Source of the DNA: an uncultured virus (IMG/VR IMGVR_UViG_3300025174_000006)
Taxonomy: Duplodnaviria > Heunggongvirae > Uroviricota > Caudoviricetes
DNA: 64,000 nucleotides
Strand: one strand, 5' to 3'
IMG/VR virus record: IMGVR_UViG_3300025174_000006
The first letter of the stretch is position 1. Each line of letters begins with the position of its first letter. The position numbers and the translations under genes were made by a program. The notes under the pieces are model-generated. The model was not told where the DNA came from, ran no database searches, and worked only from the letters and a program-made list of their open reading frames with translations. Of this stretch, positions 11,363 to 57,399 are shown piece by piece.

Positions 11363-11630
11363 GATTTTAATCTATTATCTTCCAGCAACAGCATATTTTG
11401 TTATTCCTATGAATTCTTTTTTTGCCCAATTATCAATTATTGATAATTCCTTGTCTGTTGGACGTTTATTATGTGGACCACGTATTTGCACTGCTCTACC
11501 ATCTCTAACCTCTATAGTTACCATACTTATACCGAACAGTCTTAAAGAGAAAATTGAACATGACCATTTTAAACAAGAGCTTAAATAAGAATACACACAA
11601 TGAGCCATACTTTTTCCCTCATCAGACACC

Positions 11631-13367
11631 TTAAACAATAGAAGATAGATATAAACATGATTCTTTTTGTTTTGTTTGTTTTGCATTCAAAACAAAAACA
11701 TGTTTATCTATTTTGCTATGTCGAAGTTTCGCTGAACGAAGGTGAAAAAAAGTTGCCTCCTTTTCCTGTTCATCCAGCCACAAGTCTCGTAAAGACTTTC
11801 GGTATCTGAGTCCCGATAATTGGATTTTGTCGTGAAGTTCTTTCCAATTACAACACTCCTCCAATGCCTCAACATCTCGCAGAGAACCTGAGTTCATCCG
11901 TCTCATAGCGTGAAGACCAGTTTGTGATATACTTGGATAGAATGTGCCTTTTGTGAATTTAAAAGCACCACGCCTACCAATTTCAATTGCCGCATTTACA
12001 CAATCAACAAAGGAATTGTTTATGTTTCCTATAGTGGTTGAATAAGCACAGTTTATTTCTAATTTTTTTATTCCAATTTTTGTGCAATAAGAATTAATTA
12101 TCTCTTCGGAAAGAGTTCTGTGCCACACATTGTAAATCTGCCTGTTTGCTTCTTTTGGTTTATCATTTGAATCTTTTTTGTTGAAATTAAGTTCCTCACA
12201 AATGAAATATGCACACTTAAAGTATCTCGCTGTCTTAAACACGTCTTTCCAAATGTGGCTTATTCCGTGTGTTCTTTTATTTGTTATGCAAGCTCGTTCT
12301 TCTTTTGTTGCTTCTTTTGGTGGGTTTGCATTAAGCTCTTTTAAGTCGTAATATGAGCCATGAACAAACGAAAAATCACCGGTATCGTTATTTTTATCTA
12401 TTATTGCAACTCCAATATAATTGGGGTTTGAATCGTAAGCGATATATCTGTTTTTATTTTTTCCAAACAACATTTTTTTATCCAACTCATTATAATGTTT
12501 TTTGTATATATTACTTATTAATTCTTTTGTTTGTTCTTTTGAAAGATTTTTCTTTTTTATATCTAAACATTCTTGCCTTCTTTTGGATTTATCGATATTA
12601 AATCCTTCCAAAATAGAGTCGTCATAAGCAATGGATATTGTTTTTGTTGACAAATAAACTGATAAAGATATTTCTTTTTTATCAGACATAGCCTGCAGTT
12701 CAGAAAGAAGATTTTTTCTTTTGTCAGAAAATTCTATTTTTATTTTTTTGCCTTTTCCTGGTTTATAGATTATAATTCCATTGCATAAATCAAATGTAAA
12801 AAACCTATTTCCTTTTTGGTTTGATTCACCAAGAATGTATAAACTATTATTTCTTTGTTCTTGATATTCTTCTTTTGTTTTTGCTAATTTTCCTGCAAAA
12901 TCTTGTTTTTTATCTTCTTCTTTTTCTGCTGAAACCATATTTGACAAATAAGAAATATACCTTAAATTTTCTTTGCCTCCGAAAGTGATGTCTTTTGGCA
13001 TTAAAAAATTTAATTCCGAAAGTTTATTTTTGAGTTTGTATAGTTTCTTTTTATTAAATTTATCTTGTTTTTTACCTTTTGCTTCTAATTTCTCAATTGA
13101 TTTATTTATGTCAATAATTCGATTATTAACTTCTTCTTTGTTTGATAAAGTTTTTTTAAACAGGCTAATAACTTCTGAAGCAACGCTTCTGGATTCTATA
13201 AGATTTAATCCAAGATTATTTTTTGCAAAAGCAACAAGCTCTTCTTCTTTTGTATTTCCATTTGTCATTCGATATAGCACACGTTTCGCATGAGAATATT
13301 GCATTTGTTTTTCAGAAACAAATTCTTCATCAGAAAGCGATTTTATATCTAATAGAATAGATTTCAT
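11631..13367 (-). CDS. tnpB: TnpB RNA-guided nuclease of the IS607 element
   Basis: ITFGG, KGNRFF; RuvC AYDSNP, FICEEL, FVDCVNAA; homologous to 7027-8583. Confidence 0.85.
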   Translation of the reverse strand: MKSILLDIKSLSDEEFVSEKQMQYSHAKRVLYRMTNGNTKEEELVAFAKNNLGLNLIESRSVASEVISLFKKTLSNKEEVNNRIIDINKSIEKLEAKGKKQDKFNKKKLYKLKNKLSELNFLMPKDITFGGKENLRYISYLSNMVSAEKEEDKKQDFAGKLAKTKEEYQEQRNNSLYILGESNQKGNRFFTFDLCNGIIIYKPGKGKKIKIEFSDKRKNLLSELQAMSDKKEISLSVYLSTKTISIAYDDSILEGFNIDKSKRRQECLDIKKKNLSKEQTKELISNIYKKHYNELDKKMLFGKNKNRYIAYDSNPNYIGVAIIDKNNDTGDFSFVHGSYYDLKELNANPPKEATKEERACITNKRTHGISHIWKDVFKTARYFKCAYFICEELNFNKKDSNDKPKEANRQIYNVWHRTLSEEIINSYCTKIGIKKLEINCAYSTTIGNINNSFVDCVNAAIEIGRRGAFKFTKGTFYPSISQTGLHAMRRMNSGSLRDVEALEECCNWKELHDKIQLSGLRYRKSLRDLWLDEQEKEATFFHLRSAKLRHSKIDKHVFVLNAKQTKQKESCLYLSSIV

Positions 13368-15742: not shown

Positions 15743-16492
15743 TTATTTATTTGTAAAAACCAATCTATTTTTGCGTTGGAAATTGTAATTGTAAATTTCT
15801 TCAAACATCTGCAAATACATTTCGCCGTCAGCACAATGAACAAACTTTCTTGGGTTTTTGTCTATTTGACTAATCATCCGGTTGTGATTGTAATCCTTTG
15901 TTTTAACAAGTCTTTTACAAGCAGTAACAGCTGAACGGTAATCCATTTTCGGAAGATAAGTCCTAAAACTCTTCCAAATATTTAACACCTTTTGAGCTTC
16001 ATTTATTTGGTTTTGAGTAATTTCAACTATTTCTCCTGCCAAAATTCCCTTACGAATATCCGAACTTCCCTCTCCTCTCAAAAACGAAACAGCTTGGCTC
16101 GGTTTTAATCCGTTTGACATAGAAAAACTTTCAATTGCCTGGAAAACTTTGTTTCCACTTTTTGCTCGTGCAACAATATGATCATCGGTACTCCAAGGCT
16201 TTTGTAAAGAATTTGTTTTTGCAACAGCATCTAAATTAAGAGTTTGTTCTGCGATGTGAAAATAAATAACAAGACCCAATTCTTTTCTGGCAGTAAGGCG
16301 GTGTTGACCATCTCTAACTACGCCATTTTTTGATATGATAATTGGATACGATTTACCATAATCGGCAATTTCAATTTCTTTTTTTAATTTTTCAACTCTA
16401 TTCCTGTCAACAGGACGATTTTGACTAAATTTGAAAGAATTATAATTTTTACTATTATAAATCTTTCCCGGTTTGTAATTACTTAGACTCAT
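15743..16492 (-). CDS. ParB/Srx-like N-terminal domain protein
   Basis: NRPVD, PIII, DGQHRL.A motifs. Confidence 0.75.
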   Translation of the reverse strand: MSLSNYKPGKIYNSKNYNSFKFSQNRPVDRNRVEKLKKEIEIADYGKSYPIIISKNGVVRDGQHRLTARKELGLVIYFHIAEQTLNLDAVAKTNSLQKPWSTDDHIVARAKSGNKVFQAIESFSMSNGLKPSQAVSFLRGEGSSDIRKGILAGEIVEITQNQINEAQKVLNIWKSFRTYLPKMDYRSAVTACKRLVKTKDYNHNRMISQIDKNPRKFVHCADGEMYLQMFEEIYNYNFQRKNRLVFTNK

Positions 16493-29294: not shown

Positions 29295-31502
29295 TCAAAA
29301 ATCAACAACATTATTATTGTCATTATGTGCAATATTTTGTAATTCCTGAACGTTGAAATTAAAATCCAACATTTCGTTTTCTATATGTTTTGCTTGTTGA
29401 ATTGTTTCTGGCAATTTCAAATCATAACAATTATTATATTCTTTTATTTCAAAGAATTTTTTAATAAAATCTTTTACTGAGTTAATTATTGTTTCGGTAG
29501 CTTTAGCATTATGTTTAGCTTTTAACTGATTAAAAGTATATATTGTTTTTTTTGAACCATCAGAATCAATATTCGAATATTGTATATTTATACTAAGAGT
29601 AGCTCTATCCATAGTTTCTAAATCTTCAACAGAATATATTACAAAACTTCCTTTTGCAACATTTGCACAATAAGTTTTAACACAATGACTCATTACTGAT
29701 GATTCTTCATAAAATTTTTCCGGAGTATCAATTAAATTAAATTTGATATTATCAAAAATTCCTTCTGTATGTCTGAATTTATCTATGTGAATTTTTAAGT
29801 CTTCACTTAATTTTTTATCTGCAATCAACCTAAAAGAAAGACTCAAAGAATTATGCATATCAACTAAAGCATCAAAAGTTTTTGATTTTAATATTTCAGT
29901 TAATTGAATCTCTACATTTATTAACATAAATATAGTGTCCATATACAATTGAAGTATTTTTTCAAAATTAGCATCAGAGGTATGAAAGATTTTTAAAATA
30001 TGGCAAAAATGTTTGTGGGTTATTTTAAAATGTCCTATTCTGTTAATGTTTTGATTATACATATTTTGCACACAAACAATAAAGTCGTAAGCATCTTTTA
30101 TATTATTATTTAATATTATTTTGTCAACTGTTTCAATTTCGTCAAAAGCAGAATTGTTATGTAAGAATCCATAAAACACTTGAGCAACTTCATCAAAATT
30201 TCTTTCTAAAAATAAGTCTACATAAAATTTTCTAAATTGTATATTTTTCAATCTCAATTTAATATCTTTATATATTGGAACCCTTGTGTCAACCTGTACT
30301 GTCGGATGAGTTGTTATTGAAAATAATAAATCTTTTTTTTGGGGATGAGCTTTTAATTTTCTCTTTCTTTTTTTCTCTTCTGTTTTTATGTATTTAATTA
30401 TTTTTGTATGTTTCGAAAATTCAGAAGTTACTTTACTTTTAAACATAGTTTCCAAAATTGTTTTTGGATTGGTTGGATTTTTCTTTTTTAAGTTTGTCAA
30501 AGAACACACAAAAGAAGAATTTGTTAATAAATTAAGAAATTTATCCGGACCATAAGTAAGAATTAATGTCACGATGGGCTGATAAACTGAAAGTGACAAC
30601 ATTATACATAATCTTCTTTTTAAATATTGTATCCAAATATATCTGCTTGTAGACATATTTCCATTATAGTTACTGAGCGATTCTGGCTTATAATGACAAT
30701 TATTTAAAAAAGATTCTTCACCACAATTAGTTGGAGAGCTACTTAAATTTCTAAATAAAGAATTCAAATACATTTCATCACGCTCTTTTTCTAATATTAA
30801 ATTTATTCTATTAACATCCCTCTGGTCACATTTTGATTCTACTAGTTCACAAAATTTTATTAAAGGTTTTATTACCTGTCTTTCAAAAAGTCCTTGCGAA
30901 ATTACATTTTCATATAATGCATTTAATGTCATATTGTTAACTATTGAAGAACAATGTTTAACAAGAAATCTAAACGGCACTGTAATTATTTTTTCCTTAA
31001 TTTTTATCTTTATGGTATCGCTTTTTTTAGAAAGGTATAATGAACGATTACTAATATTCCTAAAAATCAATTTTTTTGTTGTAACAGAGACAAACACTAT
31101 AGTTGCAAAAGAATATAAAGCATAAAAATTTTCTTTTTCAACTACACCAAATCTTTTTGATGTAACATTTCCTTCTATTTCTTTAGAGTAAATTAACTTT
31201 ACACCGGAAAGGGATTTGTACTCTTTACTGCAACTATTGCAAATTGTTTTTTGACTTGAAATTATTTTACCGTATCCATTTCTACTTATTGCTTCAAAAG
31301 GAATTTCAGTCATTTGACCACAAGTACAATATAAAGCCCATCTTTTATTGGAATAATTGTTTTGAAAATGGCTGAATTCTTTTTTTACATTTGTTTCTGG
31401 TGTGCTTTCCACGTCATCAAAAGACGGATTAGAAGAATCGTTATATTGTGGAGTCCTAACTAAATCAAATATAAGAGCAAGATATGGATTTTTTTCTTTC
31501 AA
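29295..31502 (-). CDS. Large protein with N-terminal Zn ribbon and C-terminal PcfJ domain
   Basis: CTCG...CNSC; EESSVMSHCVKTY, RATL.I, Q.K...N. Confidence 0.7.
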   Translation of the reverse strand: MKEKNPYLALIFDLVRTPQYNDSSNPSFDDVESTPETNVKKEFSHFQNNYSNKRWALYCTCGQMTEIPFEAISRNGYGKIISSQKTICNSCSKEYKSLSGVKLIYSKEIEGNVTSKRFGVVEKENFYALYSFATIVFVSVTTKKLIFRNISNRSLYLSKKSDTIKIKIKEKIITVPFRFLVKHCSSIVNNMTLNALYENVISQGLFERQVIKPLIKFCELVESKCDQRDVNRINLILEKERDEMYLNSLFRNLSSSPTNCGEESFLNNCHYKPESLSNYNGNMSTSRYIWIQYLKRRLCIMLSLSVYQPIVTLILTYGPDKFLNLLTNSSFVCSLTNLKKKNPTNPKTILETMFKSKVTSEFSKHTKIIKYIKTEEKKRKRKLKAHPQKKDLLFSITTHPTVQVDTRVPIYKDIKLRLKNIQFRKFYVDLFLERNFDEVAQVFYGFLHNNSAFDEIETVDKIILNNNIKDAYDFIVCVQNMYNQNINRIGHFKITHKHFCHILKIFHTSDANFEKILQLYMDTIFMLINVEIQLTEILKSKTFDALVDMHNSLSLSFRLIADKKLSEDLKIHIDKFRHTEGIFDNIKFNLIDTPEKFYEESSVMSHCVKTYCANVAKGSFVIYSVEDLETMDRATLSINIQYSNIDSDGSKKTIYTFNQLKAKHNAKATETIINSVKDFIKKFFEIKEYNNCYDLKLPETIQQAKHIENEMLDFNFNVQELQNIAHNDNNNVVDF

Positions 31503-31507
31503 AATGA

Positions 31508-32620
31508 CTAATTACTTAATGGAAAATGAATTTTTGGATGCGATTTATAATTTTCTAAAGTAATATCTTCTAAGGCATATTCAGAAATGTCATTAACTAT
31601 TTTATCAGATATTTTAACTATTGGTAACTCATATGACTCTCTTAACAATTGTTCATTAACTCCATCAATTTGATTTAAATAAATGTGACAATCACCTAAG
31701 TTTCCTATTATCTCATATGGAATCATACTTACTTGTTTGGCAATCATACTTAAAAGAAGAGAATAGCTGCTGATATTATATGGTAAACCAAGTGCCGTAT
31801 CAATGCTTCTTTGATTCCAACTTAATGAAATTGCTCGTTTCGGAATGTTTTGTTGATCTAATTCAAAATCTTTCCAATTATTTTTCCCACCTTTGTCACT
31901 GCCACCATAACCCAAATTTTTATCAAACCACTTATTTCTTTCTTCTGTGGTTAATTCTCTTGTCCAACATTGGAATCCATAATGACAAGGAGGTAAAACA
32001 CATTTATCTAAAGTTCCTGGATTCCAAGCACTAACCATTAATCTTCTACTATCTGGATTGGCTTTTAAGTCATTTATAAGATTCGATATTTGATCTACGA
32101 AACCAATTTTTGCTTGGATGCCTTTTTCTGTTTTTTCATATTCTGTAAAAGTCCACTTCCTCCATTGTTTACCATAAATTTCGCCTAAATTTCCCCATTT
32201 TTCAGAAAATCCTTCTTCGTTTTTTATTTTATCAATAAATTCTTCTTTTGATTCGTACCTTAATGGAGCTGGATTAAATTCTGGTGAATATTTTTTTGCT
32301 TCTTTGGTGGCATAATCATATAACATTTTCTTTTCTTTTTCAAATGCTTTATATGCGTCCCCATCCCAAATATGACAGTTGTTATCAACTAAATATTTTA
32401 TGTTTGTATCTCCTTTTAAAAACCAAAGTAATTCAGTTACTATTGTTTTAAATGCCATTTTTTTGGTAGTAAGTAAAGGAAAACCGGTAGACAATTTATG
32501 ACGTATTTCTCGACTAAATACACTTAAAGTTCCAGTTCCTGTTCTATCAGATTTTTTAGTACCATTTTCAAGAATATCTTTAAGTAAATTTTGATAATCT
32601 AAATCTAATTTATTTGCCAT
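31508..32620 (-). CDS. thyA: Thymidylate synthase
   Basis: DRTGTGT, FPLLTTK, ELLWFL.G.TN, YG.QWR, SRR, LPPCH, QRS.D..LGLPYN, GDCHIY. Confidence 0.96.
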   Translation of the reverse strand: MANKLDLDYQNLLKDILENGTKKSDRTGTGTLSVFSREIRHKLSTGFPLLTTKKMAFKTIVTELLWFLKGDTNIKYLVDNNCHIWDGDAYKAFEKEKKMLYDYATKEAKKYSPEFNPAPLRYESKEEFIDKIKNEEGFSEKWGNLGEIYGKQWRKWTFTEYEKTEKGIQAKIGFVDQISNLINDLKANPDSRRLMVSAWNPGTLDKCVLPPCHYGFQCWTRELTTEERNKWFDKNLGYGGSDKGGKNNWKDFELDQQNIPKRAISLSWNQRSIDTALGLPYNISSYSLLLSMIAKQVSMIPYEIIGNLGDCHIYLNQIDGVNEQLLRESYELPIVKISDKIVNDISEYALEDITLENYKSHPKIHFPLSN

Positions 32621-32692: not shown

Positions 32693-34090
32693 ATGCCGTC
32701 AAAAAATAAAAAACAGTTAAATTTTTTCTTATTAGTTAAAGCCTATAAAGAATCTGGAGAAAATGGCGTTTTTCGTCAATTAAAACATCTTGAAGGATAT
32801 AAACCAAGACTTACTCCAACTTATATGAACAAGTTGATTAAAACAGCTGAAAGTATTGCTGATTCAGATTTAATAGATATGACTTCTGGAGTAGAAGGAG
32901 AAAACCCATTAGGCGATACAAGAAATTTAAAAGTAGGCTACTGGGCATTATTTACAGGAAAATACAAACCAGCCGGCTCAAAAGATGAAATTCCAAAAGA
33001 AGGAGAATTTATAGCCCAAATAAAAAAAGTAGATAACGCGAAAGGTTTGGTTGAATTTAATCAAAAAGGTTTTAGAAATAAGTATGGAAATACTATTTTC
33101 ATACCAAGAAGAGCTGTGGTCATCAATCAAGAATTTCAATATTTGGATTATGCTTTATTTGACAATGTAATACGTACCGGTAAAAACCCTCAAGAACTTG
33201 CGAAGCCAAAAGAAAATATGGAAGAGTCAATTGAACTTAAAAGCAAATCACATAAGGGCAATAGATTATTTGATATGCTTAAAACTGCAAAGTTTCAACA
33301 TTATGATTCTCCAAAAGGAGAATTATCTACATTAAATCATGGAGAAGAAGATAGAAAAAGAATAGTTTCAAAACTAGGCAAAGCTGATAAAAAAACTTAT
33401 AGAGAATGGATTAAAACTCCAGAAGGAAAAGAATCTTTGGAAAGGTTTGAGGATTTTACATCACCCTTATTTAAAAAGAATAAAATTGAAGAATCAGTAA
33501 GAAAAATGGTAAGGAAGTTGTTGCGAGAAAACTTATCAGGAGAAAATTTGATACCAGATGATATAATTGATAGCTTTTACAATAGAATAAAGAAAATATT
33601 AGACGCTGGAGCTGATAAAAAACATCCCTCAGTAGAACGAGAATTAAACAGAATCAAAATGTTGAATGCAGATGTTATACCTGAAAAGATAAAAGCTCTT
33701 TTAACAGAAGAAATCGAAAATAATAATATTGATTTATCGAATTATAATGGCTGGGAAAAACAATCAGAATGGTTTGGAAATCCTTCATTAGGCTTAGAAA
33801 GTTATAAAAAGATATTTCAAAATCCATTTAACAACAAAATGGTTCCTGTTTTTATATACGGCAAAGAAGGAGAAGGAAAAGATAAACCAATTTTGGGCGG
33901 TACTGATGAAAAAGGAAACAGGGTTTTGTCAGGCGAAAAATTCGATGCTTCAGATTGGCATTTTGTAGTGCATGCCGGAGCTAATAGTCAATATTCTTAT
34001 TCTGGAGGATTTTATCCAGAAACCCCAACTTTAAAACAAGCTATGGATATTGTGGATGAGAAATATAAAAACAAAAAACTTATTCATTAA
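32693..34090 (+). CDS. Hypothetical multidomain late protein
   Basis: 465-aa ORF, TATTTA motif upstream, E-rich linkers. Confidence 0.65.
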   Translation: MPSKNKKQLNFFLLVKAYKESGENGVFRQLKHLEGYKPRLTPTYMNKLIKTAESIADSDLIDMTSGVEGENPLGDTRNLKVGYWALFTGKYKPAGSKDEIPKEGEFIAQIKKVDNAKGLVEFNQKGFRNKYGNTIFIPRRAVVINQEFQYLDYALFDNVIRTGKNPQELAKPKENMEESIELKSKSHKGNRLFDMLKTAKFQHYDSPKGELSTLNHGEEDRKRIVSKLGKADKKTYREWIKTPEGKESLERFEDFTSPLFKKNKIEESVRKMVRKLLRENLSGENLIPDDIIDSFYNRIKKILDAGADKKHPSVERELNRIKMLNADVIPEKIKALLTEEIENNNIDLSNYNGWEKQSEWFGNPSLGLESYKKIFQNPFNNKMVPVFIYGKEGEGKDKPILGGTDEKGNRVLSGEKFDASDWHFVVHAGANSQYSYSGGFYPETPTLKQAMDIVDEKYKNKKLIH

Positions 34091-34237
34091 ATTCTTGTGA
34101 TATTCAATCACATATTTTAATTTTTTCAAAATATATCATGAATCTTTTAAAATTTCATTCGTGAATAAAAATATATTACTTTCAGTATGTTTGCCTTAAA
34201 AGTTTTTTATTGCATATTTATAGTAAACATACTTAAA

Positions 34238-34933
34238 ATGAAAACAGAAACAGAAAAAACAGAAGAGAAACAAAAAATCAAAGAATTGGTTGATAAGGGT
34301 TTAAAAAATAAAGAAATTGGGAAAATATTAGGAATGAAATATCGTACAGTTTGTTTTAAGTTAAGAGAATATAAATTAATTAGATATTCTAAACCGCAAA
34401 TTTCTCAAGAAAAAATAGATGAAATGATTAGATTATATAATGAAGGATATAATTGTACCGAAATTTGTGAAAAAATAAATATAAGTAAAATTACAATTTC
34501 ATTTATACTAAAGGAGAACGGAATCAAAATAGTTAAACGAAGTGCTGATAGTAAACCAGAATTAAGATTATTAAGAGGTGAAAAATGTATAATTTGCGAT
34601 AGAAACCTTGGACCATATGTTACAATATGTAGCACTTGTGTTTCTCAAGTTAGAAGGTATAAAATAAAGAAAAAAATGTTTGATTTTAAAGGTGGCAAAT
34701 GTGAAGATTGTGGAGATGATAGTTTATGTGTGGATATTTATGATTTTCATCATTTAGATCCAGATGAAAAGGATTTTAATTTATCAAAAGTTTTAATAGA
34801 CGGAAAATCTTGGGATGATATAGAAAAAGAATTAAAAAAATGCGCCTTACTCTGTTCTAATTGTCACAGAATTAGACATTCTGTTGAAAGAAAAAGTGAA
34901 AAATTTTGGAAATATATAAAATTAATTTCTTAA
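34238..34933 (+). CDS. HTH plus HNH homing endonuclease
   Basis: GGKCEDCG, DFHHLDP..K.F, E..KC.LLCSNCHR..H. Confidence 0.8.
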   Translation: MKTETEKTEEKQKIKELVDKGLKNKEIGKILGMKYRTVCFKLREYKLIRYSKPQISQEKIDEMIRLYNEGYNCTEICEKINISKITISFILKENGIKIVKRSADSKPELRLLRGEKCIICDRNLGPYVTICSTCVSQVRRYKIKKKMFDFKGGKCEDCGDDSLCVDIYDFHHLDPDEKDFNLSKVLIDGKSWDDIEKELKKCALLCSNCHRIRHSVERKSEKFWKYIKLIS

Positions 34934-34938
34934 AAAGA

Positions 34939-34969
34939 AAAGCTCCAGTAAAACAATTACTGGAGCTTT
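34939..34969. terminator. Bidirectional intrinsic terminator
   Basis: AAAGCTCCAGTAA...TTACTGGAGCTTT between convergent units. Confidence 0.75.
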
Positions 34970-34974
34970 CACTG

Positions 34975-35091
34975 TGTTGATGGGGGGGATCGAACCAACC
35001 CGACTCATTTGCTTTCAGGAAATTGCTCTCACTTACTCCTTGCGAAGTAAAGGATTTGTCTTGCGAAAAACCACCACTGAGCTACATCAAC
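34975..35091 (-). tRNA. tRNA-Phe(GAA)-like gene with a ~40-nt two-hairpin insertion in the D loop
   Basis: Acceptor GTTGATG/CATCAAC, D stem GCTC/GAGC, anticodon loop CTGAAAG, T loop TTCGATC, two GCAA-capped hairpins, no encoded CCA. Confidence 0.75.
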
Positions 35092-35114
35092 ATATTATTA
35101 AAGAACTAATTTTG

Positions 35115-35191
35115 TGTCGATTAGAGACTACAAGTCCTCTCTTTTCTGGTTGTTCACACCAGCACTTTACGTGTACATAAGTTAAATCGAC
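35115..35191 (-). tRNA. Non-canonical tRNA-Phe(GAA)-like gene, copy 1
   Basis: GTCGATT/AATCGAC, TA, ACTT/AAGT, CTGGT-GTGAACA-ACCAG, AGAGG-ACTTGTAG-TCTCT. Confidence 0.75.
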
Positions 35192-35196
35192 ATATG

Positions 35197-35273
35197 TGTT
35201 GGTGAGAGACTACAAATCCGCTCTTATTCGGCTGTTCACACCGATACTTTATATGTGTATAAGTTACACCAAC
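35197..35273 (-). tRNA. Non-canonical tRNA-Phe(GAA)-like gene, copy 2
   Basis: GTTGGTG/CACCAAC, TA, ACTT/AAGT, TCGGT-GTGAACA-GCCGA; compensatory changes relative to copy 1. Confidence 0.75.
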
Positions 35274-35318
35274 ATATTTTATTTAAAAGAACTAAATCGT
35301 TTCAATTATTTAACGATA

Positions 35319-35351
35319 CAAAGATAATAATATTTAAAACTTAAAACCAAA
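35319..35351 (-). promoter_or_regulatory. Bacteroidota-type promoter driving the tRNA-like cluster
   Basis: TATCTTTG at 35319-35326, TTTG at 35348-35351, 21-nt spacer; boxA-like GTTCTTT at 35283-35292 and 35098-35106. Confidence 0.65.
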
Positions 35352-35410
35352 TATTTTATAATAAAAATTTACCTATTTATTAAAAAGTTATTAACAATTC
35401 AAATACTACA

Positions 35411-35950
35411 ATGACTACAGAGGAAAAAAAATTAAGAATAGCTATAAGAAAATCATTAATGGAAATGGAAAACGTTTCTGAAAGCGATATTTTAACAAGA
35501 GCTGGAGTTAACTGGCAAGAGATGAAGCCTAAATTTTTAAAAACAGTTAAATGTCTTGTTTCAAAAATAGATGACGATAAATATAACGATGCAGAAGATT
35601 TAATAGGTAAAGCTATTGGTATGCTTAAAATTTGGAAAGCAAAAATGAAAAAAGGAATAGGAATGGTTGATAGAACTTCGAATACTGAGACGTTGGATGA
35701 AATTGATATTACGGAAACTTTTGGTGGGAAATATGCTCTAGGAACTGGATATAAAAAAGATGAAATTGGCGATAAAAAATATCAAGGAAAACTTATTGAT
35801 TATATTCTTTATAATCAAGGAAGAAACACAGACCAAAGAGAGCCGACTGATAGAAAAATGTATTGCGGATATGATTTAGAACAATTATCTAATAAGGATT
35901 TACAAAAAATAAAGGATAACATGGAACATCCAAGAGGAAGATACTGGTAA
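35411..35950 (+). CDS. Hypothetical late protein
   Basis: 179-aa ORF after CTATTTAT. Confidence 0.6.
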   Translation: MTTEEKKLRIAIRKSLMEMENVSESDILTRAGVNWQEMKPKFLKTVKCLVSKIDDDKYNDAEDLIGKAIGMLKIWKAKMKKGIGMVDRTSNTETLDEIDITETFGGKYALGTGYKKDEIGDKKYQGKLIDYILYNQGRNTDQREPTDRKMYCGYDLEQLSNKDLQKIKDNMEHPRGRYW

Positions 35951-35995: not shown

Positions 35996-36445
35996 CTAAT
36001 CATAATTACATCCAAAAAAGGTTTCATTCGTTAATACATTACTTGTAAGTCCTGCTTCGGAAGTTACAACTACAGAGCTTTGTATTTCTCCTTTAACCCA
36101 CATTTTAAAGATGTTATTATCCTCTTTATATTTATCTCTTTGTGATTTTATATCAAATCCGTAGTCTGCGTGTAGTCCAATAAAAACTCCTTTATTTTGA
36201 TTGCCGATTTTTTCTACCAGCACTTCTGGCTTTACTAAATAATATAAACATTCTAAAGCTTCTTCGCTGTGTGCTGTCGAGGATTTCTTGCTAATAAATC
36301 TTTCATCAAATTTTCCTAATTTAGAAATTAGCTCTTCGACTTTTGACCTGTTGTTTTTAATAACTTTCAGTTCTTCTTCTAAATGAATTGTATTAAAACT
36401 AATACCAAATAGTGTTGTTGTTTCTTCGAATTCTTCAATATCCAT
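35996..36445 (-). CDS. Hypothetical protein
   Basis: 149-aa ORF, TAGATTTG motif upstream. Confidence 0.6.
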   Translation of the reverse strand: MDIEEFEETTTLFGISFNTIHLEEELKVIKNNRSKVEELISKLGKFDERFISKKSSTAHSEEALECLYYLVKPEVLVEKIGNQNKGVFIGLHADYGFDIKSQRDKYKEDNNIFKMWVKGEIQSSVVVTSEAGLTSNVLTNETFFGCNYD

Positions 36446-36482
36446 ATGACAAATCTAATATAAACAAATCTAAAATAAAGAT

Positions 36483-36752
36483 TTAAGAATATTTACCTCT
36501 TCGATTTGCTCTCCTTGGCTTTCTTTCTAATTTTACTGGAGCTTCTTCTGTTTCCTCTATTTGTTCCGGTTCTGGTACCGGTTGTTTTGGAAGTGGCGTT
36601 TGGTCTTGTTTAATAACTTCTGGATTACCTATAGAAGGTGATTGCGTTTGTTGAGGAACAGATTCTCCTCCTTGAGAAGATTGTTCATCTTCGTTGATAA
36701 TTCCTGCCAATTCACGCATTCTTTTTAGCTCTTCTGTAAGATTTTTTTTCAT
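36483..36752 (-). CDS. Small protein with LAG leader
   Basis: MKKNLTEELKRMRELAGIINE. Confidence 0.65.
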   Translation of the reverse strand: MKKNLTEELKRMRELAGIINEDEQSSQGGESVPQQTQSPSIGNPEVIKQDQTPLPKQPVPEPEQIEETEEAPVKLERKPRRANRRGKYS

Positions 36753-36765
36753 TTTACTTAATTTG

Positions 36766-37251
36766 TTATTTTCCTGGTTTTCCAGATTTTATCCACTCAT
36801 CTCTAAGTTTCTCATTTTCTATTCTATTCCAAACTGATTTTTGAATTGCCTGAGATGCTTTTGTTCTAGAATTTGCAGATGCTTCATCTGGATAACGGAC
36901 ACGCCATTGATAAACAAGCTCCTTTGCTACTCCTAAACCTCTGTATTTCTTATCAACAACAAGAGTATTGCCAAAATGATAGCTGGCAATTATTTTATCA
37001 CCATCATATACAACAGCACCATCTTCATTGAATTTCGCTGAATATTTCCCTTTTAAAAATGGTTCTAATTTATCATCTTTTAATGTGGTAAGTTCACTTG
37101 GTTTTAAAAATTTCGCATTAGCGTTTGTTGTTATTGATGGTTTTCCTAAAAATTGGTCTTTTGTTAAATCATATACAGATGAAAACTTAGCTTCATTAAT
37201 TCCTGCCAATTCACGCATTCTTTTAATTTCTTCTGTGAGATTTTTTTTCAT
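36766..37251 (-). CDS. GNAT-like acetyltransferase with LAG leader
   Basis: VVDKKYRGLGVAKELV acetyl-CoA motif A; leader nearly identical to the neighbour. Confidence 0.7.
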   Translation of the reverse strand: MKKNLTEEIKRMRELAGINEAKFSSVYDLTKDQFLGKPSITTNANAKFLKPSELTTLKDDKLEPFLKGKYSAKFNEDGAVVYDGDKIIASYHFGNTLVVDKKYRGLGVAKELVYQWRVRYPDEASANSRTKASQAIQKSVWNRIENEKLRDEWIKSGKPGK

Positions 37252-44270: not shown

Positions 44271-45305
44271 TTATCTAATTTCAACATTAAGACGCTCAAT
44301 TGAGGTGAATTTTATATTTTCTTGGATTTCATTTATTTCTGTATTTGTTAAAGTGCGATCATTTGATTGAAAAACTATTCTATAACACTTAGATTGTTTA
44401 CCTGTTTTTGGGTGAGCAAATTCATCTATTAATGAAACATTTTCTATTAAATCGCCTCCATTTTCTCTCACAATTTCACAAAAATTATTATGAGCGAAAT
44501 TAGTATCTGCCCAAAATGCCAAATCTCTGGATATTGGTGGATAACTTGAGTATTCCTTAAATTTAACTACATCTCCAGAAATAAATTGATTTATAAATCT
44601 TTCATCAGACGACCAAAAGTAACGTATGTCTGGTATTTCAAATAAGAGGATAGACAATCTTTCCAAACCTAATCCAAAAGCAAATGCAGCTTTATTTTCT
44701 AAACCACAATTTTCCATAATTTTAGGTTGAACAACCCCTGCACCAAGAACCTCTAACCATTTTCCCTGAAACATAACTTCAACTTCAAAAGATGGATGTG
44801 TAAAAGGAAAATAATCTTCATTGAAGCGGTATTCACAATTTGGAAAAAGAACATCAATAAGACCTTTTAATGTTTTTTTAAGTTCTTCTTCTGCGTTTTT
44901 TCCATCTTCAATTACACATACACCTTCCATTTGGTGAAAAACCGGATAATGAGAGCTGTCAATATCATCTTTCCGATACACATCACCTGTAACTAAAAAT
45001 TTTGTATGACCAGCAGTTAATAATTCATTTTGGTGAGCCGATGTATGGGTTCGTAATATATGATTCTCATCAAAATAATAAGTATCACTCAATGAACGTG
45101 CAGGATGATCTTTTGGAATAAGTAGTTTATCAAAACAATTTTCAGTTGTAACCTTTGGATTTAAATCATCAAATTTTTTATATTCATCTCCAAAGTAATC
45201 ATAGATTTTTCTTTTAATAATTTCTAAAGGATGATTTTTTTGATTGTGTAAATTTCTGCCAATTTTAGCTTGGATTCCGGGGGTAATGTTTGATTTAAAT
45301 TCCAT
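44271..45305 (-). CDS. Monomeric mitochondrial-type phenylalanyl-tRNA synthetase (catalytic domain plus FDX-ACB anticodon-binding domain)
   Basis: HPARS.SDTYY, LRTHTSAHQ, GDVYR.D.ID..HYPVFHQMEG, YFPFTHPS, AFGLGLERL, YPPISRDLAFW, SKCYRI..Q..DRTLT..EIN. Confidence 0.92.
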   Translation of the reverse strand: MEFKSNITPGIQAKIGRNLHNQKNHPLEIIKRKIYDYFGDEYKKFDDLNPKVTTENCFDKLLIPKDHPARSLSDTYYFDENHILRTHTSAHQNELLTAGHTKFLVTGDVYRKDDIDSSHYPVFHQMEGVCVIEDGKNAEEELKKTLKGLIDVLFPNCEYRFNEDYFPFTHPSFEVEVMFQGKWLEVLGAGVVQPKIMENCGLENKAAFAFGLGLERLSILLFEIPDIRYFWSSDERFINQFISGDVVKFKEYSSYPPISRDLAFWADTNFAHNNFCEIVRENGGDLIENVSLIDEFAHPKTGKQSKCYRIVFQSNDRTLTNTEINEIQENIKFTSIERLNVEIR

Positions 45306-45392: not shown

Positions 45393-46061
45393 TTAATCAA
45401 ATTTCATATTCATTAGTTCTAACAATTCCTTGTCCATACTGTCAGAATATCCTGAGCTAAAAATGGCAAATTCCGTTATTAATTTTAAATATTTTGGAGA
45501 CGGTTCTCCATTTGCCTTGCCCTTAGTCTGAATTGCCATTCCGGTATGAGTATCAATCTCAATTGTTACATGCGACTCATTCTTTTCGTCTCGTAAAGAA
45601 ACTATTAACGAATTGCCTTGTTTCACTTTGGTAGTATATGTTCCTACGCAGTTTCTCATTGTTTCGCCTTCTGTTGCTAAATCTTCCACGTCCAAAAGAA
45701 CAAAATAATGTATTCCATCACGGCATCTATATAATATTTTATCATCCTCTTCTTTTTCTTTATTTTTAATAGTTTCATCAAATTTCATGTCGTCATGCCA
45801 TACTTGTGCCAGTACATAAGCCTCCAAAAAAGATAAAGATAAGATATTTGGCTTTTCTTTTTTTGCCCAATCTATTATAAATAAAAATCCATCAAGATTA
45901 TTCAGAAGAGTATCATCTTTCTTTACTTGACCTCCAATCCAAATATTAAATTTGTCAGTTCCGGATAAACGTCCGATTTCACTTATTTTTCTAACAAGCT
46001 CCTCATCAATTTTGAAGTTATCTAAGAGATATTTTTCTTTCTTTGTTAATTGCTCTGCCAT
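45393..46061 (-). CDS. PcfJ-domain protein
   Basis: DL..EG..M.NCVG.Y, SLRD.....HVTIE, Q.KGKAN. Confidence 0.75.
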   Translation of the reverse strand: MAEQLTKKEKYLLDNFKIDEELVRKISEIGRLSGTDKFNIWIGGQVKKDDTLLNNLDGFLFIIDWAKKEKPNILSLSFLEAYVLAQVWHDDMKFDETIKNKEKEEDDKILYRCRDGIHYFVLLDVEDLATEGETMRNCVGTYTTKVKQGNSLIVSLRDEKNESHVTIEIDTHTGMAIQTKGKANGEPSPKYLKLITEFAIFSSGYSDSMDKELLELMNMKFD

Positions 46062-46064
46062 AAT

Positions 46065-46781
46065 CTATTTCTTAATGTAATTCAAAATTTGCTTAGCACA
46101 ATCCTCAACATTAAATTTTTGTGTATCAACAATAATCTCTGGGTTTAATGGAATTTCATAAGGTGCTGTATCGTGCACTCCTGTAAAATCCTTTATCTCC
46201 CCACTCCTCGCCTTTGCATACAACCCTTTAACGTCTCTTTGTTCACAAATACTCAAAGGTGTATTGACATATATTTCAGTAAAATCCTTACTTATACTCC
46301 TTACATAATCTCTTGCTTCAGCATATGGAGAAATAAGACTTACGACAGGTATTATACCTTGACTTTGTAAATAAACTGCCATTTTTCCAACATCTTGATT
46401 GTGTCTTATTCTTGCAGCTTTATCAAAGCCATAATTTTTAAATATTTCTCTGATTTCATCTCCATCCAAAAGCATGGCGGCATGACCACCTTCTTTCAGA
46501 CGAGTTAAAACTTCTTTTGCTATCGTTGTTTTTCCAGAACATGAGAGCCCGGTAAAAAATAACATGCTCGTTCTATATTTTTTCTTTGTAAGTTTATCCC
46601 ACACAATATCAAACCAATAATATGTAAGTATTTTTACAATATTTTCCACAAGGCCAAGCATTATGGAGAGTTTTATGTTTCCAGTAAGAAGAAAAGAAAC
46701 AACAAATGTTACAACAAAAGAATAAATTCTGTAAATTACAGATTTTGTCATGTGTTTTATGTTAATTATTTTCCTTAGCAT
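46065..46781 (-). CDS. cysC: Adenylylsulfate kinase with N-terminal DUF2061-like membrane segment
   Basis: FTGLSCSGKTT, LDGD.IR, ISPY, C..RDVKGLY.KAR.GEI..FTG. Confidence 0.92.
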   Translation of the reverse strand: MLRKIINIKHMTKSVIYRIYSFVVTFVVSFLLTGNIKLSIMLGLVENIVKILTYYWFDIVWDKLTKKKYRTSMLFFTGLSCSGKTTIAKEVLTRLKEGGHAAMLLDGDEIREIFKNYGFDKAARIRHNQDVGKMAVYLQSQGIIPVVSLISPYAEARDYVRSISKDFTEIYVNTPLSICEQRDVKGLYAKARSGEIKDFTGVHDTAPYEIPLNPEIIVDTQKFNVEDCAKQILNYIKK

Positions 46782-56481: not shown

Positions 56482-57399
56482 ATGCGTAAATTCAACATTA
56501 TCGGAGGCATGCCTAGATGTGGCACAACTTTAGCTGGACAAATTTTAAATTCTAATCCGAATTTTCATGTGACACCAACTTCTTCAATTTTGGATTCATT
56601 AAAGAATATAAGAAGCACATTTAGTCACAACCCAACTTGGAAGGCTCAAGATAGATTAAAGCTTATGCCAAATATTAGAGCTTCTATGAAGGGGTTTTTA
56701 AATGGATTTTTTGAAAATGAAAATGTTGTGTTTGACAAAAACAGAGGTTGGTCAAATAATATTTCTTTATTAGATGATGTTCTTGGAAATAATGACACAA
56801 AAATAATCTGGTTTTATAGAAATCCTGTTGAAATTATTTCTTCCATAGAAAGCCAACACAACAAGACAATACTTTTAGAAAACACTGATGAAGCTACTAT
56901 TCCAGGAATGTTTATGTCGCTCGACCGGCGCATAGGAACGTATACAAATGAAGATGGATTAGTTGGACACCCAGTTGCCACATTGAAAGACGCGATTGAG
57001 ATGGGATATCTTTCAAGAATTTTATTTGTAAAATACTATGATTTAACTAATAACACACAATTTGTTATGAACGCTATTCATCAATTTATAGGAGAAGATT
57101 TCTATGAATATGATTTAAAAAATGTTAAACAAACAACATATGAATTTGACGGGACTTATAATTATAAATTTCCACACACAATAAAAGAAGGAGAGATAAA
57201 ATGGAAAAAAGCAGATATGACTCTTCCTATGAAATATATACAAGCAATAAATGAAAGATTTTCCACTCTTAATAAATTAATTTTTGAAGGTGATGTATCT
57301 GAATTTGCTGGAGAAGAATTTTCTTCACATCAATTAAATATTGTTATGCCACCAACACAACAAAATTCGGTTATAGAACAAAATCCTTTTCAAATATAA
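56482..57399 (+). CDS. PAPS-dependent sulfotransferase family protein
   Basis: GGMPRCGTTL 5'-PSB loop, DKNR.W, RNPVEIISS 3'-PB motif, VKY.DL. Confidence 0.85.
   Translation: MRKFNIIGGMPRCGTTLAGQILNSNPNFHVTPTSSILDSLKNIRSTFSHNPTWKAQDRLKLMPNIRASMKGFLNGFFENENVVFDKNRGWSNNISLLDDVLGNNDTKIIWFYRNPVEIISSIESQHNKTILLENTDEATIPGMFMSLDRRIGTYTNEDGLVGHPVATLKDAIEMGYLSRILFVKYYDLTNNTQFVMNAIHQFIGEDFYEYDLKNVKQTTYEFDGTYNYKFPHTIKEGEIKWKKADMTLPMKYIQAINERFSTLNKLIFEGDVSEFAGEEFSSHQLNIVMPPTQQNSVIEQNPFQI

Follow-up and report, generated by a model that had tools for sequence, protein, structure and literature searches.

What are tRNA-like genes that carry a phenylalanine anticodon, depart from canonical tRNA and escape standard tRNA finders doing in the genome of a bacteriophage? 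The question is raised by a cluster of three such genes, referred to as E1, E2 and E3, in a 64,000-nucleotide stretch of DNA from an uncultured member of the Caudoviricetes (IMG/VR record IMGVR_UViG_3300025174_000006), called here the window. The hallmark genes of this phage comprise a sigma-70 factor, an amidase with a peptidoglycan-binding domain, a peptide deformylase, an integrase and a DnaB-type helicase; the full genome is about 0.5 Mb, and the host is probably a member of the Bacteroidota. At the DNA level, no match to GenBank phages was found. A giant virus of eukaryotes was considered as the source because the only named close match of the encoded PheRS is Tupanvirus (60% identity), and was rejected given the bacterial and phage hallmark genes present.

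Layout of the cluster and anatomy of E1 and E2

The three genes follow one another on the minus strand (Table 1). A preliminary description, made from the letters of the window, had proposed three tRNA-Phe(GAA)-like genes at these positions. The GAA loop is found in all three, and the cloverleaves given for E1 and E2 agree with the anatomy reported here in their coordinates, stems and loops, the loss of GG and TTC, G32 and C37.

Table 1. Features of the cluster and of the upstream synthetase gene (positions in the window)
Feature	Position	Strand	Description
Single-chain mitochondrial-type PheRS	44271-45305	minus	344 aa; 9 kb upstream of the cluster, same strand
Cluster leader	35274-35326	minus	putative -7 promoter motif and conserved AGTTCTTT
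E1	35273-35197	minus	77-nt non-canonical tRNA-Phe(GAA)-like gene; GAA at 35237-35235
E2	35191-35115	minus	77-nt paralog of E1; GAA at 35155-35153
Spacer before E3	35092-35114	minus	leader motif TTAGTTCTTTAATAATAT repeated
E3	35091-34975	minus	117-nt tRNA-Phe(GAA)-like gene; GAA at 35016-35014
E3 D-loop expansion	35032-35070	minus	GCAA hairpins 35070-35055 and 35051-35032, from sequence and fold
Intrinsic terminator	34970-34938	minus	14-bp stem and T run; 1 found vs 0.2 expected

E1 and E2 are each built of a 7-bp acceptor stem followed by TA, a 4-bp D stem (ACTT/AAGT) and a 5-bp anticodon stem. Their anticodon loops are identical (GTGAACA; GUGAACA in RNA), with G at position 32 and C at position 37, and both have A as the discriminator; the 3' end of E1 is A73-C74. 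The D loops lack GG and the T loops lack TTC. The best reading of the T arm is AG[N]GGA/TCTCT, a 5-bp stem with a single bulged base, closed by a 7-nt loop YTTGTAG. E1 has AG[C]GGA/UCUCU as its T stem and UUUGUAG as its loop, and in E2 the bulged base is A and the loop CUUGUAG, so that the bulge itself is among the differences between the two genes. Altogether 19 of 77 columns differ between E1 and E2, 11 of them in stems, and none of the 21 pairs is broken: there are three double changes in the acceptor stem, two in the anticodon stem (five compensatory double changes in all) and one change from U.G to U-A. A scan for other copies in the genome found the motifs GTGTGAACA and TTGTAGTCTCT confined to these two genes. 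Model R1 scores E1 at 82.9 bits, E2 at 86.6 bits and E3 at 30.8 bits (E 5e-6).

Hairpin insertions in E3 and its orthologs

E3 has the anticodon loop CTGAAAG (CUGAAAG), with A37, and carries GCTCAGTGG in its D arm and GGTTCGATCC in its T arm. It retains the canonical GG and TTCGA motifs of the elbow. Its T stem is bulged (GGG[UU]GG/CCCCC), and a C.C mismatch stands at pair 31-39. The D loop contains a 42-nt insertion, placed after GG, which consists of two GCAA-capped hairpins. The insertion was absent from the preliminary description.

Orthologs of E3 were identified as R3 in locus L061 and as W3 and W4 on contig L175. At the same place of the D loop they hold a GNRA-capped hairpin with compensatory changes: the hairpin of R3 reads TTCTCT-GCAA-AGAGAA and that of X1 CTCC-GAAA-GGAG, and W3 has one GCAA hairpin and W4 two. 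Bulged T stems and GNRA-capped hairpins, inserted in the D loop (as in E3) or in the T stem, are oddities of the whole family; the extra arms branch off at position 20 of the D loop or within the T stem. Bulge and hairpins are conserved across phages whose PheRS proteins are 50-77% identical.

Pairing and loop positions maintained across the family

Taken one sequence at a time, the folding energies of E1, E2 and E3 are not significant (z -1.3, -2.0 and -0.9), and pieces from four DNA runs were all identical to the window and thus offer no variants for covariation. The comparison with relatives is informative. In an alignment of six sequences (A4), pairing holds in 96.8% of pair cells, and both sides have changed in 18 of the 21 pairs; none of 500 shuffles reaches the observed value, and controls in which the structure was slid are 29-46% paired. 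An alignment of 13 family members (A5) is 95.0% paired, with changes on both sides of 19 of 21 pairs and 0 of 500 shuffles reaching this level, although, being fitted to the model, it leans towards structure. Across its 13 sequences, pairing of the acceptor and D stems is complete (100%). Together with the unbroken pairs of E1 and E2, these changes bear out the earlier proposal that structure is under selection.

The GAA loop, on whose conservation the preliminary description had made its reading depend, is not lost in homologs: U33-G34-A35-A36 occurs in 19 of 19 members from seven DNA sources, and A38 in 18 of 19. U8-A9 is present in 18 of 19 rows of the model alignment; in the remaining row, that of W3, the 5' end is mis-aligned, and the W3 sequence itself has TA after the acceptor strand. 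Position 37 is C in 11, A in six and U in two of the 19, hence a pyrimidine in 13, and it varies between orthologous slots (A in R3, C in W3 and W4). G32 recurs among family members, and 12 of 19 have a mismatch at pair 31-39. Most units have U at position -1.

Watson-Crick 'kissing' between D loop and T loop (TACA/TGTA), considered as a substitute for the elbow, was rejected as statistically unsupported by shuffled D loops. The observed run was reached in 2282 (E1), 759 (E2), 545 (R2), 4135 (W2), 79 (V1), 4349 (S1) and 1769 (T1) of 5000 shuffles. Between R2 and W2, one change from A-U to G-C fits such kissing, an anecdotal observation.

Detection by tRNA finders and resemblance to tRNA-Phe

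It had been anticipated that standard finders may miss these genes, and ARAGORN and the tRNA model of Rfam do miss all three. ARAGORN makes no tRNA call in the window, and neither its bacterial nor its mitochondrial mode calls E1-E3; the Rfam tRNA model (RF00005) reports nothing at its gathering score, nor does it match 34500-35800 at E <= 10. The relatives R1 and S1 are both called tRNA-Phe by ARAGORN. Judged against canonical elongator tRNAs, the genes of the cluster have the 7-bp acceptor stem, U8, the 4-bp D stem, the 5-bp anticodon stem and the 7-nt loop with U33. They lack an uninterrupted 5-bp T stem, all three being bulged, and only E3 keeps the GG and TTCGA of the canonical elbow; the purine expected at position 37 is found in E3 (A37) and is replaced by C37 in E1 and E2. 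Two identity features of tRNA-Phe, the anticodon GAA (19/19) and the discriminator A73 (18/18), are present throughout the family.

Phe is over-represented among the tRNA-like genes of this phage. A 212-kb piece holds seven Phe(GAA)-like genes, three of them called by ARAGORN and the others being E1, E2, E3 and X1; Phe has a codon share of 5.2%, and Lys, with 11.7%, has three tRNA genes. The main tRNA array of a complete relative includes two canonical tRNA-Phe genes, so the unusual cluster is not needed merely to have a tRNA-Phe.

Flanking signals and 3' ends

A shared promoter had been proposed for the three genes. Sigma-70-type matches near the cluster are at the level of chance (6 found vs 5.2 expected), and the leader holds a motif of another kind, TAnnTTTG. 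It sits 53 nt upstream of the cluster as the putative Bacteroidetes-type -7 motif TATCTTTG at 35326-35319, with TTTG 21 nt farther upstream; the consensus was taken from a passage of PMC2483708. TAnnTTTG lies within 120 nt upstream of six of seven family clusters, the background rate being 0.00094 per base and strand, a recurrence that suggests a promoter function. The leader also contains AGTTCTTT at 35293-35286. With the extension (T)A, AGTTCTTT is conserved upstream of the genes in the window (twice), L061, L060, L063 and L175. The boxA-like leaders proposed earlier would correspond to this motif, a putative likeness to the rrn-type antitermination element bound by NusB/NusE. Scans for further genome copies of the leader motifs were too noisy for use. 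The proposed terminator is present (Table 1): it ends the cluster at 34938-34970, between convergent transcription units, and equivalent hairpins lie 3' of the clusters in L061, L063, L072 and L175.

E1, E2 and E3 all end A-C-A. Earlier regarded as special in place of ACCA, this end is the normal 3' flank in this phage, whose ordinary tRNA genes (ARAGORN) have C after the discriminator in 18 of 18 cases and encode CCA in only 2 of 18. Within the family, every one of the 18 visible 3' ends has A73 and C74, and relatives encode CCA (8 of 18). A gene of the CCA-adding-enzyme family occurs in two of five related records, including a complete relative of 518,809 bp; an EF-Tu-type GTPase of phage origin was not found in the five records.

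A mitochondrial-type PheRS upstream of the cluster

The preliminary description had suggested comparing charging by host and phage PheRS, an apt comparison, as the phage encodes a PheRS of its own (Table 1). The protein joins a class II core (PF01409, 3e-59) to an FDX-ACB anticodon-binding domain (PF03147, 4e-23; Pfam). It scores 378 bits against TIGR00469, whose equivalog cut-off is 258.35, falls below the cut-off of NF051887 SrmL (251.6 vs 300), and matches human mitochondrial PheRS (8P8X/3CMQ) with E 3e-103. For mitochondrial-type PheRS, passages of PMC7540514 give G34 as the main anticodon determinant and describe the roles of the contact residues. The corresponding phage residues D294, F296 and S305 align to human D364, F366 and S375 in the HMMER alignment; the C-terminal R344 is matched to human R414 by position only, because R414 lies one residue past the end of that alignment. 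All four phage residues are invariant or nearly so in 34 relatives. From these features the phage PheRS is probably the charging enzyme of E1-E3. At least one other class II aaRS is encoded in a relative, so PheRS is not a unique investment.

The PheRS lies in a conserved gene block 9 kb upstream of the cluster, an arrangement newly recognized here. Model R1 finds clusters 5-8 kb downstream of PheRS in L061, L063, L060, L072 and L070, that is, in five of 27 viral loci found through PheRS; in the other 22 no cluster was found within the flanks covered; one of the 27 loci is cut off at the enzyme gene. Nine of nine genome-contig loci with PheRS relatives, namely eight full-length relatives (46-57% identity) and L119 (36%), likewise have no cluster within the flanks covered. 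The pairing of cluster and PheRS is thus limited to one clade. A further cluster, of four genes, is located on the metagenome contig L175. Gene order from PheRS to cluster is common to the window, L061, L063, L060 and L072, and the intervening block encodes large proteins without family assignment (592, 504, 861, 263 and 324 aa). This synteny may reflect only a conserved core gene order. Single-protein searches with the flanking ORFs (35411-35950 and 32693-34090) found no relatives, and of two motif scans of viral contigs one gave 0 matches and the other 49, all chance matches inside coding DNA.

Probable role of the cluster and alternatives

With moderate confidence, we read E1, E2 and E3 as functional tRNA-Phe(GAA) genes of remodelled structure. 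Their products would probably be charged by the phage's PheRS and would supplement or replace host Phe-tRNA during infection. The cluster would be transcribed as one unit from a host-type promoter, ending at the intrinsic terminator, and the units would be excised like tRNAs; most have U at -1 and an acceptor stem of 7 bp that would stack on the T stem, a form preferred by RNase P. Their 3' ends would be trimmed to A73-C74 and then completed to CCA. Phe would most likely be attached by the single-chain enzyme from the syntenic block, a PheRS type expected to read mainly G34 and the acceptor end and, as in mitochondria, to tolerate tRNAs without a standard elbow. Variants at positions 32, 37 and 38, bulges and hairpins around an invariant UGAA would fit chargeable tRNAs that are poor substrates for host tRNA-targeting enzymes.

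This proposal meets difficulties. tRNAs reading UNN codons have a modified purine at position 37, and E1 and E2 may decode poorly because theirs is a pyrimidine. E1 and E2 are missing the elbow formed by G18-G19 and T54-Psi55-C56, which is contacted by RNase P, by the CCA-adding enzyme and by the ribosome, and EF-Tu binds where the T-stem bulge lies.

Tentatively, the cluster and the single-chain PheRS might form a natural private (orthogonal) pair, in which the rebuilt tRNAs escape host enzymes, the members with a pyrimidine at 37 (Y37) serve a role other than ordinary decoding and the hairpins dock a phage protein. The bulged T stem, GNRA 'handles', Y37 and altered elbow would then block host handling, by tRNA-cleaving defences and perhaps by host PheRS, with G34 and A73 still being read. 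The Y37 members might act as Phe donors for a phage enzyme, or read UUU runs in a deliberately slow or shifty way.

It is unlikely that E1, E2 and the other Y37 members are charged and never decode, being Phe carriers for a non-ribosomal, Fem-like enzyme; in that case the bulged T stem, altered elbow and Y37 would keep them off the ribosome and EF-Tu. Such carriers would explain the prevalence of Y37, the occurrence of G32, the non-standard elbow and the T-stem bulge, and they would agree with the canonical tRNA-Phe genes that coexist in the complete relative, with an excess of Phe-tRNA-like genes over codon demand and with the unassigned large proteins between PheRS and cluster. However, the Fem-like consumer put forward in the preliminary description has no counterpart in five phage records, one of them complete: neither FemAB (PF02388) nor Leu/Phe-tRNA protein transferase (PF03588) was matched there, and control genomes gave matches to these families. 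The switching between A37 and C37 in orthologous slots argues against two cleanly separated functional classes, and, according to passages of PMC7609411, the T-stem bulge A51a of selC* tRNA-Cys is dispensable for charging by its own CysRS.

We judge it improbable that the same RNAs are decoys or sponges, tRNA-Phe mimics by which host PheRS or a tRNA-targeting defence enzyme of the host is bound and occupied, with neither charging nor decoding required. An invariant UGAA in a variable frame and multiple copies per genome are what a decoy would show, and tRNA-targeting defences and phage tRNA countermeasures are established in the passages of PMC10264068. But a pure anticodon-loop decoy needs neither the fully paired acceptor stems nor the conserved A73-C74 (18/18) and encoded CCA (8/18), and charging is suggested by the PheRS encoded close by, whose G34 contacts are intact. 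In the literature consulted, no nuclease specific for tRNA-Phe was met.

It is very improbable that the RNAs, without ever carrying an amino acid, act as tRNA-like regulators or structural elements, for example in the sensing or titration of PheRS or as processing punctuation. In favour of this are the GNRA-capped expansion hairpins, a typical kind of docking element, and the conservation of the RNAs alongside PheRS, but the cluster lies 9 kb from that gene as a separate unit with its own promoter motif and terminator, and at the acceptor end it shows the features of a chargeable tRNA. That the genes are tRNA pseudogenes in decay, or cloverleaves arisen by chance in AT-rich DNA, as the non-significant single-sequence energies and their rejection by standard finders might suggest, is barely credible when 18-19 of 21 pairs have changed on both sides, 95-97% are paired vs 29-46% in slid controls, and bulge and GNRA hairpins are themselves conserved across phages with 50-77% identical PheRS.

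Comparison with known systems

In the limited collection of literature searched, in which PMC7162821 was represented without its supplements, no description of this tRNA family was found. Huge phages have been proposed to aminoacylate tRNA variants of their own (Al-Shayeb et al. 2020, PMC7162821), and the phages of the passages compared likewise have many tRNAs, aaRS, a peptide deformylase and a sigma factor; these passages, taken apart from the supplementary tables, name no PheRS and no structurally aberrant tRNA-Phe. The bacterial model of tRNAscan-SE used in that work, as its passages state, is likely to miss E1-E3. If RNAs of this kind are charged and used, tRNA counts of huge phages would be underestimates, because standard finders skip such genes.

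Phage tRNAs with changes in the anticodon loop evade host anticodon nucleases (PMC10264068), and in the passages of that source, as in the E1-E3 family, the anticodon is kept and flanking loop positions are altered. The tRNAs described there are otherwise canonical mycobacteriophage tRNAs, the nucleases are VapC, PrrC and colicins, and neither tRNAPhe nor tRNA-Phe occurs in that text. A T-stem bulge (A51a) is also found in selC* tRNA-Cys and allo-tRNAs, some of which have a dedicated synthetase variant (PMC7609411 and PMC5389517). Those RNAs, as described there, have 8/4 or 9/3 acceptor/T arms, whereas the arrangement here is 7/5 with a bulge, and the GNRA-hairpin insertions and Y37 of the present family are not described in the passages of PMC7609411. 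Charging and use of E1-E3 would widen the range of working tRNA shapes to include a bulged T stem, GNRA arms and Y37, and the 344-aa PheRS with its unusual tRNAs is a candidate orthogonal pair for genetic-code engineering. The system also bears on why phages invest in charging, be it for supply, for escape from tRNA-targeting immunity or for non-ribosomal use.

Staphylococcal non-proteinogenic tRNA-Gly species, the substrates of Fem enzymes, are extra isoacceptors that have lost the D- and T-loop hallmarks. The phage cluster differs from them in its amino acid, in the synthetase gene nearby and in that no Fem transferase was found in the five records. The human mitochondrial enzyme FARS2 (PDB 3CMQ, 3TUP, 8P8X; TIGR00469) has the same architecture as the phage PheRS, in which its G34-binding residues are kept, and degenerate mitochondrial tRNA-Phe, like E1 and E2, is without the standard elbow of D loop and T loop. 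In contrast to the mitochondrial system, the setting here is a bacteriophage, and its tRNAs are not reduced but expanded, by bulges and extra hairpins.

Cluster anatomy and tRNA-Phe gene content

The preliminary description claimed three tRNA-Phe(GAA)-like genes ending in a terminator; all three (E1, E2 and E3), the cloverleaves of the first two and the terminator hairpin are confirmed here and extended to a wider family. As read earlier from the sequence, E1 and E2 carry U33, GAA, G32 and C37 in the anticodon loop, while their D loops are without GG and their T loops without TTC. A Watson-Crick substitute for the missing elbow was tested and is unsupported. E3 has a normal elbow, with GG and TTCGA present, and holds a 42-nt insertion 3' of the D-loop GG that consists of two GCAA-capped hairpins; the spacer before it repeats part of the leader. 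The suspicion that standard finders may miss these genes was borne out, as ARAGORN made no call in bacterial or mitochondrial mode and Rfam gave none at gathering score, nor at E <= 10 over the locus.

The 'ACA' ends of E1-E3, previously singled out as special, are the house style of the phage and no oddity, because a C follows the discriminator in all 18 tRNAs called by ARAGORN elsewhere in the record (212,632 bp, 29% G+C) and CCA is encoded in only two of them. Three of these 18 are Phe(GAA), and only one has a standard loop; the loops of the other two are CCGAAAA and UCGAAAG. X1, found by the family covariance model and not called by ARAGORN, follows about 300 nt after a tRNA-Phe that ARAGORN does call, with a D-loop hairpin (CTCC-GAAA-GGAG) and the anticodon loop CUGAAAA. 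The piece holds seven Phe(GAA)-like genes with Phe at 5.2% of codons, versus three tRNA genes for Lys at 11.7%; Phe-like genes exceed codon demand, and codon supply alone therefore fails to explain the investment.

Features of the phage and of one relative. Positions are those of the window unless marked; L054, L055, L056 and L058 are pieces of the same phage record outside the window
Feature	Position	Strand	Description
Cluster	34938-35326	-	leader, E1, 5-nt spacer, E2, 23-nt spacer, E3, 14-bp terminator hairpin
E1	35273-35197	-	77-nt cloverleaf, loop GUGAACA
E2	35191-35115	-	77-nt cloverleaf, loop GUGAACA
E3	35091-34975	-	117 nt, loop CUGAAAG
PheRS	44271-45305	-	344 aa, single-chain, mitochondrial type
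X1	L054:15639-15735 (genome 72639-72735)	-	fourth aberrant tRNA-Phe(GAA)-like gene, 97 nt
tRNA-Phe(GAA)	genome 73045-73119 (L054)	-	isolated, C33 replacing U33
tRNA-Phe(GAA)	genome 85424-85497 (L055)	-	isolated, C33 replacing U33
tRNA-Phe(GAA)	185012-185089 (212,632-bp record)		standard loop
HTH + HNH ORF	34187-34933	+	homing-endonuclease-like
Three small ORFs	35996-37251	-	between conserved 324-aa gene and cluster
ORF pair	36483-36752, 36766-37251		near-same N-terminus MKKNLTEE[LI]KRMRELAGI
PcfJ-like	11375-11686, 29295-31502, 45393-46061, 57403-59514	-	
PcfJ-like	L058:2722-3456		
Thymidylate synthase	31508-32620	-	370 aa, 266-position profile
APS kinase	46065-46781	-	
Sulfotransferase	56482-57399	+	
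PAPS-reductase-domain protein	L058:12519-13370	-	
Cytolysin-domain ORF	L056:8628-9749 (genome about 103.6-104.7 kb)	-	373 aa, PF01289, E 3e-35
Recurring motifs and hairpins	genome about 54-86 kb (motifs in L053-L055, also pieces of the record)	+ (motifs)	intergenic motifs; GTCAC/GTGAC hairpins
tRNA-like genes	~15,900-16,300 of viral contig L070	+	seemingly interrupted

Selection on structure

Single-sequence fold energies of E1-E3 are unremarkable (z -0.9 to -2.0), so the case for selection on structure, first made from compensatory changes between E1 and E2, is a comparative one, and it is strengthened across the family. No pair is broken by the 19 differences among the 77 positions of E1 and E2. 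The 11 stem differences comprise five compensatory double changes and one U.G to U-A change; the remaining eight fall in the D loop (four), at position 26, in the variable loop, at one T-loop base and at one base left bulged in the T stem when the T arm is drawn as AG[N]GGA/UCUCU. Among the six short members from which the covariance model was built, standard pairs fill 96.8% of pair cells and both sides have changed in 18 of 21 pairs, a covariation reached by none of 500 shuffles, with slid partners 29-46% paired. For 13 members, in an alignment that was fitted to the model and so leans towards structure, 95.0% of cells are paired, 19 of 21 pairs have changed on both sides, and pairing in the acceptor and D stems is complete (100%). 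By these comparisons, the cluster genes form a selected tRNA-Phe-like family.

The GAA loop is kept in homologs: U33-G34-A35-A36 occurs in all 19 members and A38 in 18, and U8-A9 in 18 of 19 aligned rows, the exception (W3, on metagenome contig L175) being misaligned at its 5' end, where its own sequence has TA. A73 and C74 are found at all 18 visible 3' ends, eight of which encode CCA. Position 37 is C in 11 members, A in six and U in two, and pair 31-39 is mismatched in 12 of 19. By eye, a 1-2-nt bulge interrupts the 5' strand of the T stem in most members; S2 and U1 have a longer insertion at this site, a GAAA-capped hairpin in U1, and W4 (also on L175) has a plain T stem. One or two GNRA-capped hairpins lie 3' of the D-loop GG in E3, R3 (from viral relative L061), X1, W3 and W4, and their stems compensate between orthologs (R3 TTCTCT/AGAGAA vs E3 TTTTTC/GACAAA). 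Since bulge and hairpins are shared, with compensatory changes, the oddities are conserved family characters and not decay.

Association with a phage PheRS

The phage phenylalanyl-tRNA synthetase (PheRS) has a class II PheS core and an FDX-ACB domain. It scores 378 bits against TIGR00469 (cut-off 258), E 3e-103 against human mitochondrial PheRS, and 251.6 bits, below the cut-off of 300, against NF051887, 'PheS-related mystery ligase SrmL'. This single-chain type serves mitochondrial tRNAs whose elbow is not standard. At E <= 1e-10 the phage protein has 6892 homologs; the nearest are metagenomic proteins (60-87% identity), some on 200-520-kb contigs, and Tupanvirus (60%) is the only named close match. 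Passages of PMC7540514 list D364, F366, S375 and R414 among the residues of the human enzyme that bind G34. The first three align by HMMER to phage D294, F296 and S305, and R414 corresponds to the C-terminal R344 by position only, one residue past the alignment end; across 34 relatives, the four phage residues vary little or not at all.

Twenty-seven viral loci came from an alignment of PheRS relatives, and a covariance-model search of these loci finds the family in five, whose PheRS identities are 77% (L061), 66% (L063 and L060), 54% (L072) and 50% (L070); the same model recovers E3 at 30.8 bits. In all five, PheRS and cluster share a strand, the cluster being 5-8 kb downstream, and all except L070 have in common with this phage the gene order 592-aa protein, PheRS, cluster. 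No cluster occurs within 10 kb of PheRS in 21 of the 27 loci, and the contig of one more (L065) ends at the enzyme gene. Eight full-length PheRS relatives on MAG contigs (46-57% identical, seven labelled Bacteroidota) have no cluster within 9 kb, and none was found at a ninth locus (L119, 36% identity). The enzyme-cluster pairing is seen in one clade only. A pattern scan of metagenome contigs yielded a four-gene cluster on L175.

The tRNA-like genes of L070, a more distant PheRS-bearing viral contig, appear interrupted by 70-80-nt stretches repeating ATCTTTTCAGCAAATTATTT and may be intron-bearing or split tRNAs. Judged against L061, the phage has gained an HNH gene and three small ORFs beside its cluster. 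The former, immediately beyond the cluster terminator, is absent at that place in L061 and so is probably a mobile insertion; the latter are absent there too. The 161-aa member of the ORF pair with near-same N-termini shows by eye a GNAT-like RGLGVAKELV motif, with no family match.

Candidate expression signals, probable host and genome

The shared promoter proposed earlier was not upheld as a sigma-70-type site, as matches at the cluster are at chance level; TATCTTTG, 53 nt upstream of E1, fits TAnnTTTG, given as the Bacteroidetes -7 consensus in passages of PMC2483708. TAnnTTTG lies within 120 nt upstream of six of seven clusters, close relatives among them being non-independent, with 0.11 expected per 120 nt. 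From this motif and the MAG labels, we infer a host in Bacteroidota. The conserved leader motif AGTTCTTT(T)A may resemble boxA. Elsewhere, recurring intergenic motifs such as TGTACTATAC(A/G)AA(T)TTTAATTCTTT and hairpins of the form GTCAC...TTAATTCTTTT...GTGAC may be phage promoters and terminators.

Hallmark genes (sigma-70 factor, amidase with peptidoglycan-binding domain, peptide deformylase, integrase, DnaB-type helicase) mark the source as a bacteriophage. An identical PheRS protein lies on a 503,412-bp contig and one close relative has a complete genome of 518,809 bp that carries terminal repeats, so the true genome is probably about 0.5 Mb. At least five PcfJ-like proteins are encoded, one directly upstream of PheRS and syntenic in relatives. 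The length of the thymidylate synthase implies an insertion of about 100 aa. The APS kinase, sulfotransferase and PAPS-reductase-domain genes may form a sulfation module. The thiol-activated cytolysin domain is, to our knowledge, unusual in a phage.

Probable charging, decoding and possible escape

Given the conserved acceptor end, GAA, A73 and C74, and a phage-owned PheRS with intact G34 contacts, aminoacylation with Phe is the natural reading: the family, E1-E3 included, would be charged with Phe, probably by the phage's own enzyme. Among the genes of the complete relative is one for a CCA-adding-family enzyme. Around the invariant UGAA there is variety (G32, Y37, bulges, extra arms, and C33 in two other phage Phe genes), as expected if the tRNAs must stay chargeable yet escape attack or handling by the host enzymes that act on tRNA-Phe. 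Beyond the gene anatomy, this scenario of charging and escape is what we infer. The idea of escape from host tRNA-targeting enzymes has been published for other phage tRNAs, according to passages of PMC10264068.

Y37 and G32 with the missing elbow in E1 and E2, and a T-stem bulge where EF-Tu binds, count against ordinary decoding, as do two canonical tRNA-Phe genes in the complete relative and the finding of no phage EF-Tu in five related records. The RNAs may therefore have a non-ribosomal use. However, no member of the FemAB or Leu/Phe-transferase families was found in five phage records, one complete. The earlier interpretation is supported in part: the genes belong to a tRNA-Phe-like family under selection, whose charging probably falls to the phage PheRS, and no evidence was found for a Fem-like role.

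Comparison with known systems

Al-Shayeb et al. describe, in main-text passages of PMC7162821, huge phages with tRNAs and up to 15 synthetases and suggest that these charge their own tRNA variants; 'phenylalan' does not occur in those passages. Literature searches that took in these passages found no description of this tRNA-Phe-like family. In passages of reviews of non-canonical tRNAs (PMC7609411), the combination seen in the phage family (bulge, GNRA hairpins, Y37) is not described; the same passages record that selC* tRNA-Cys, too, has a T-stem bulge (A51a).
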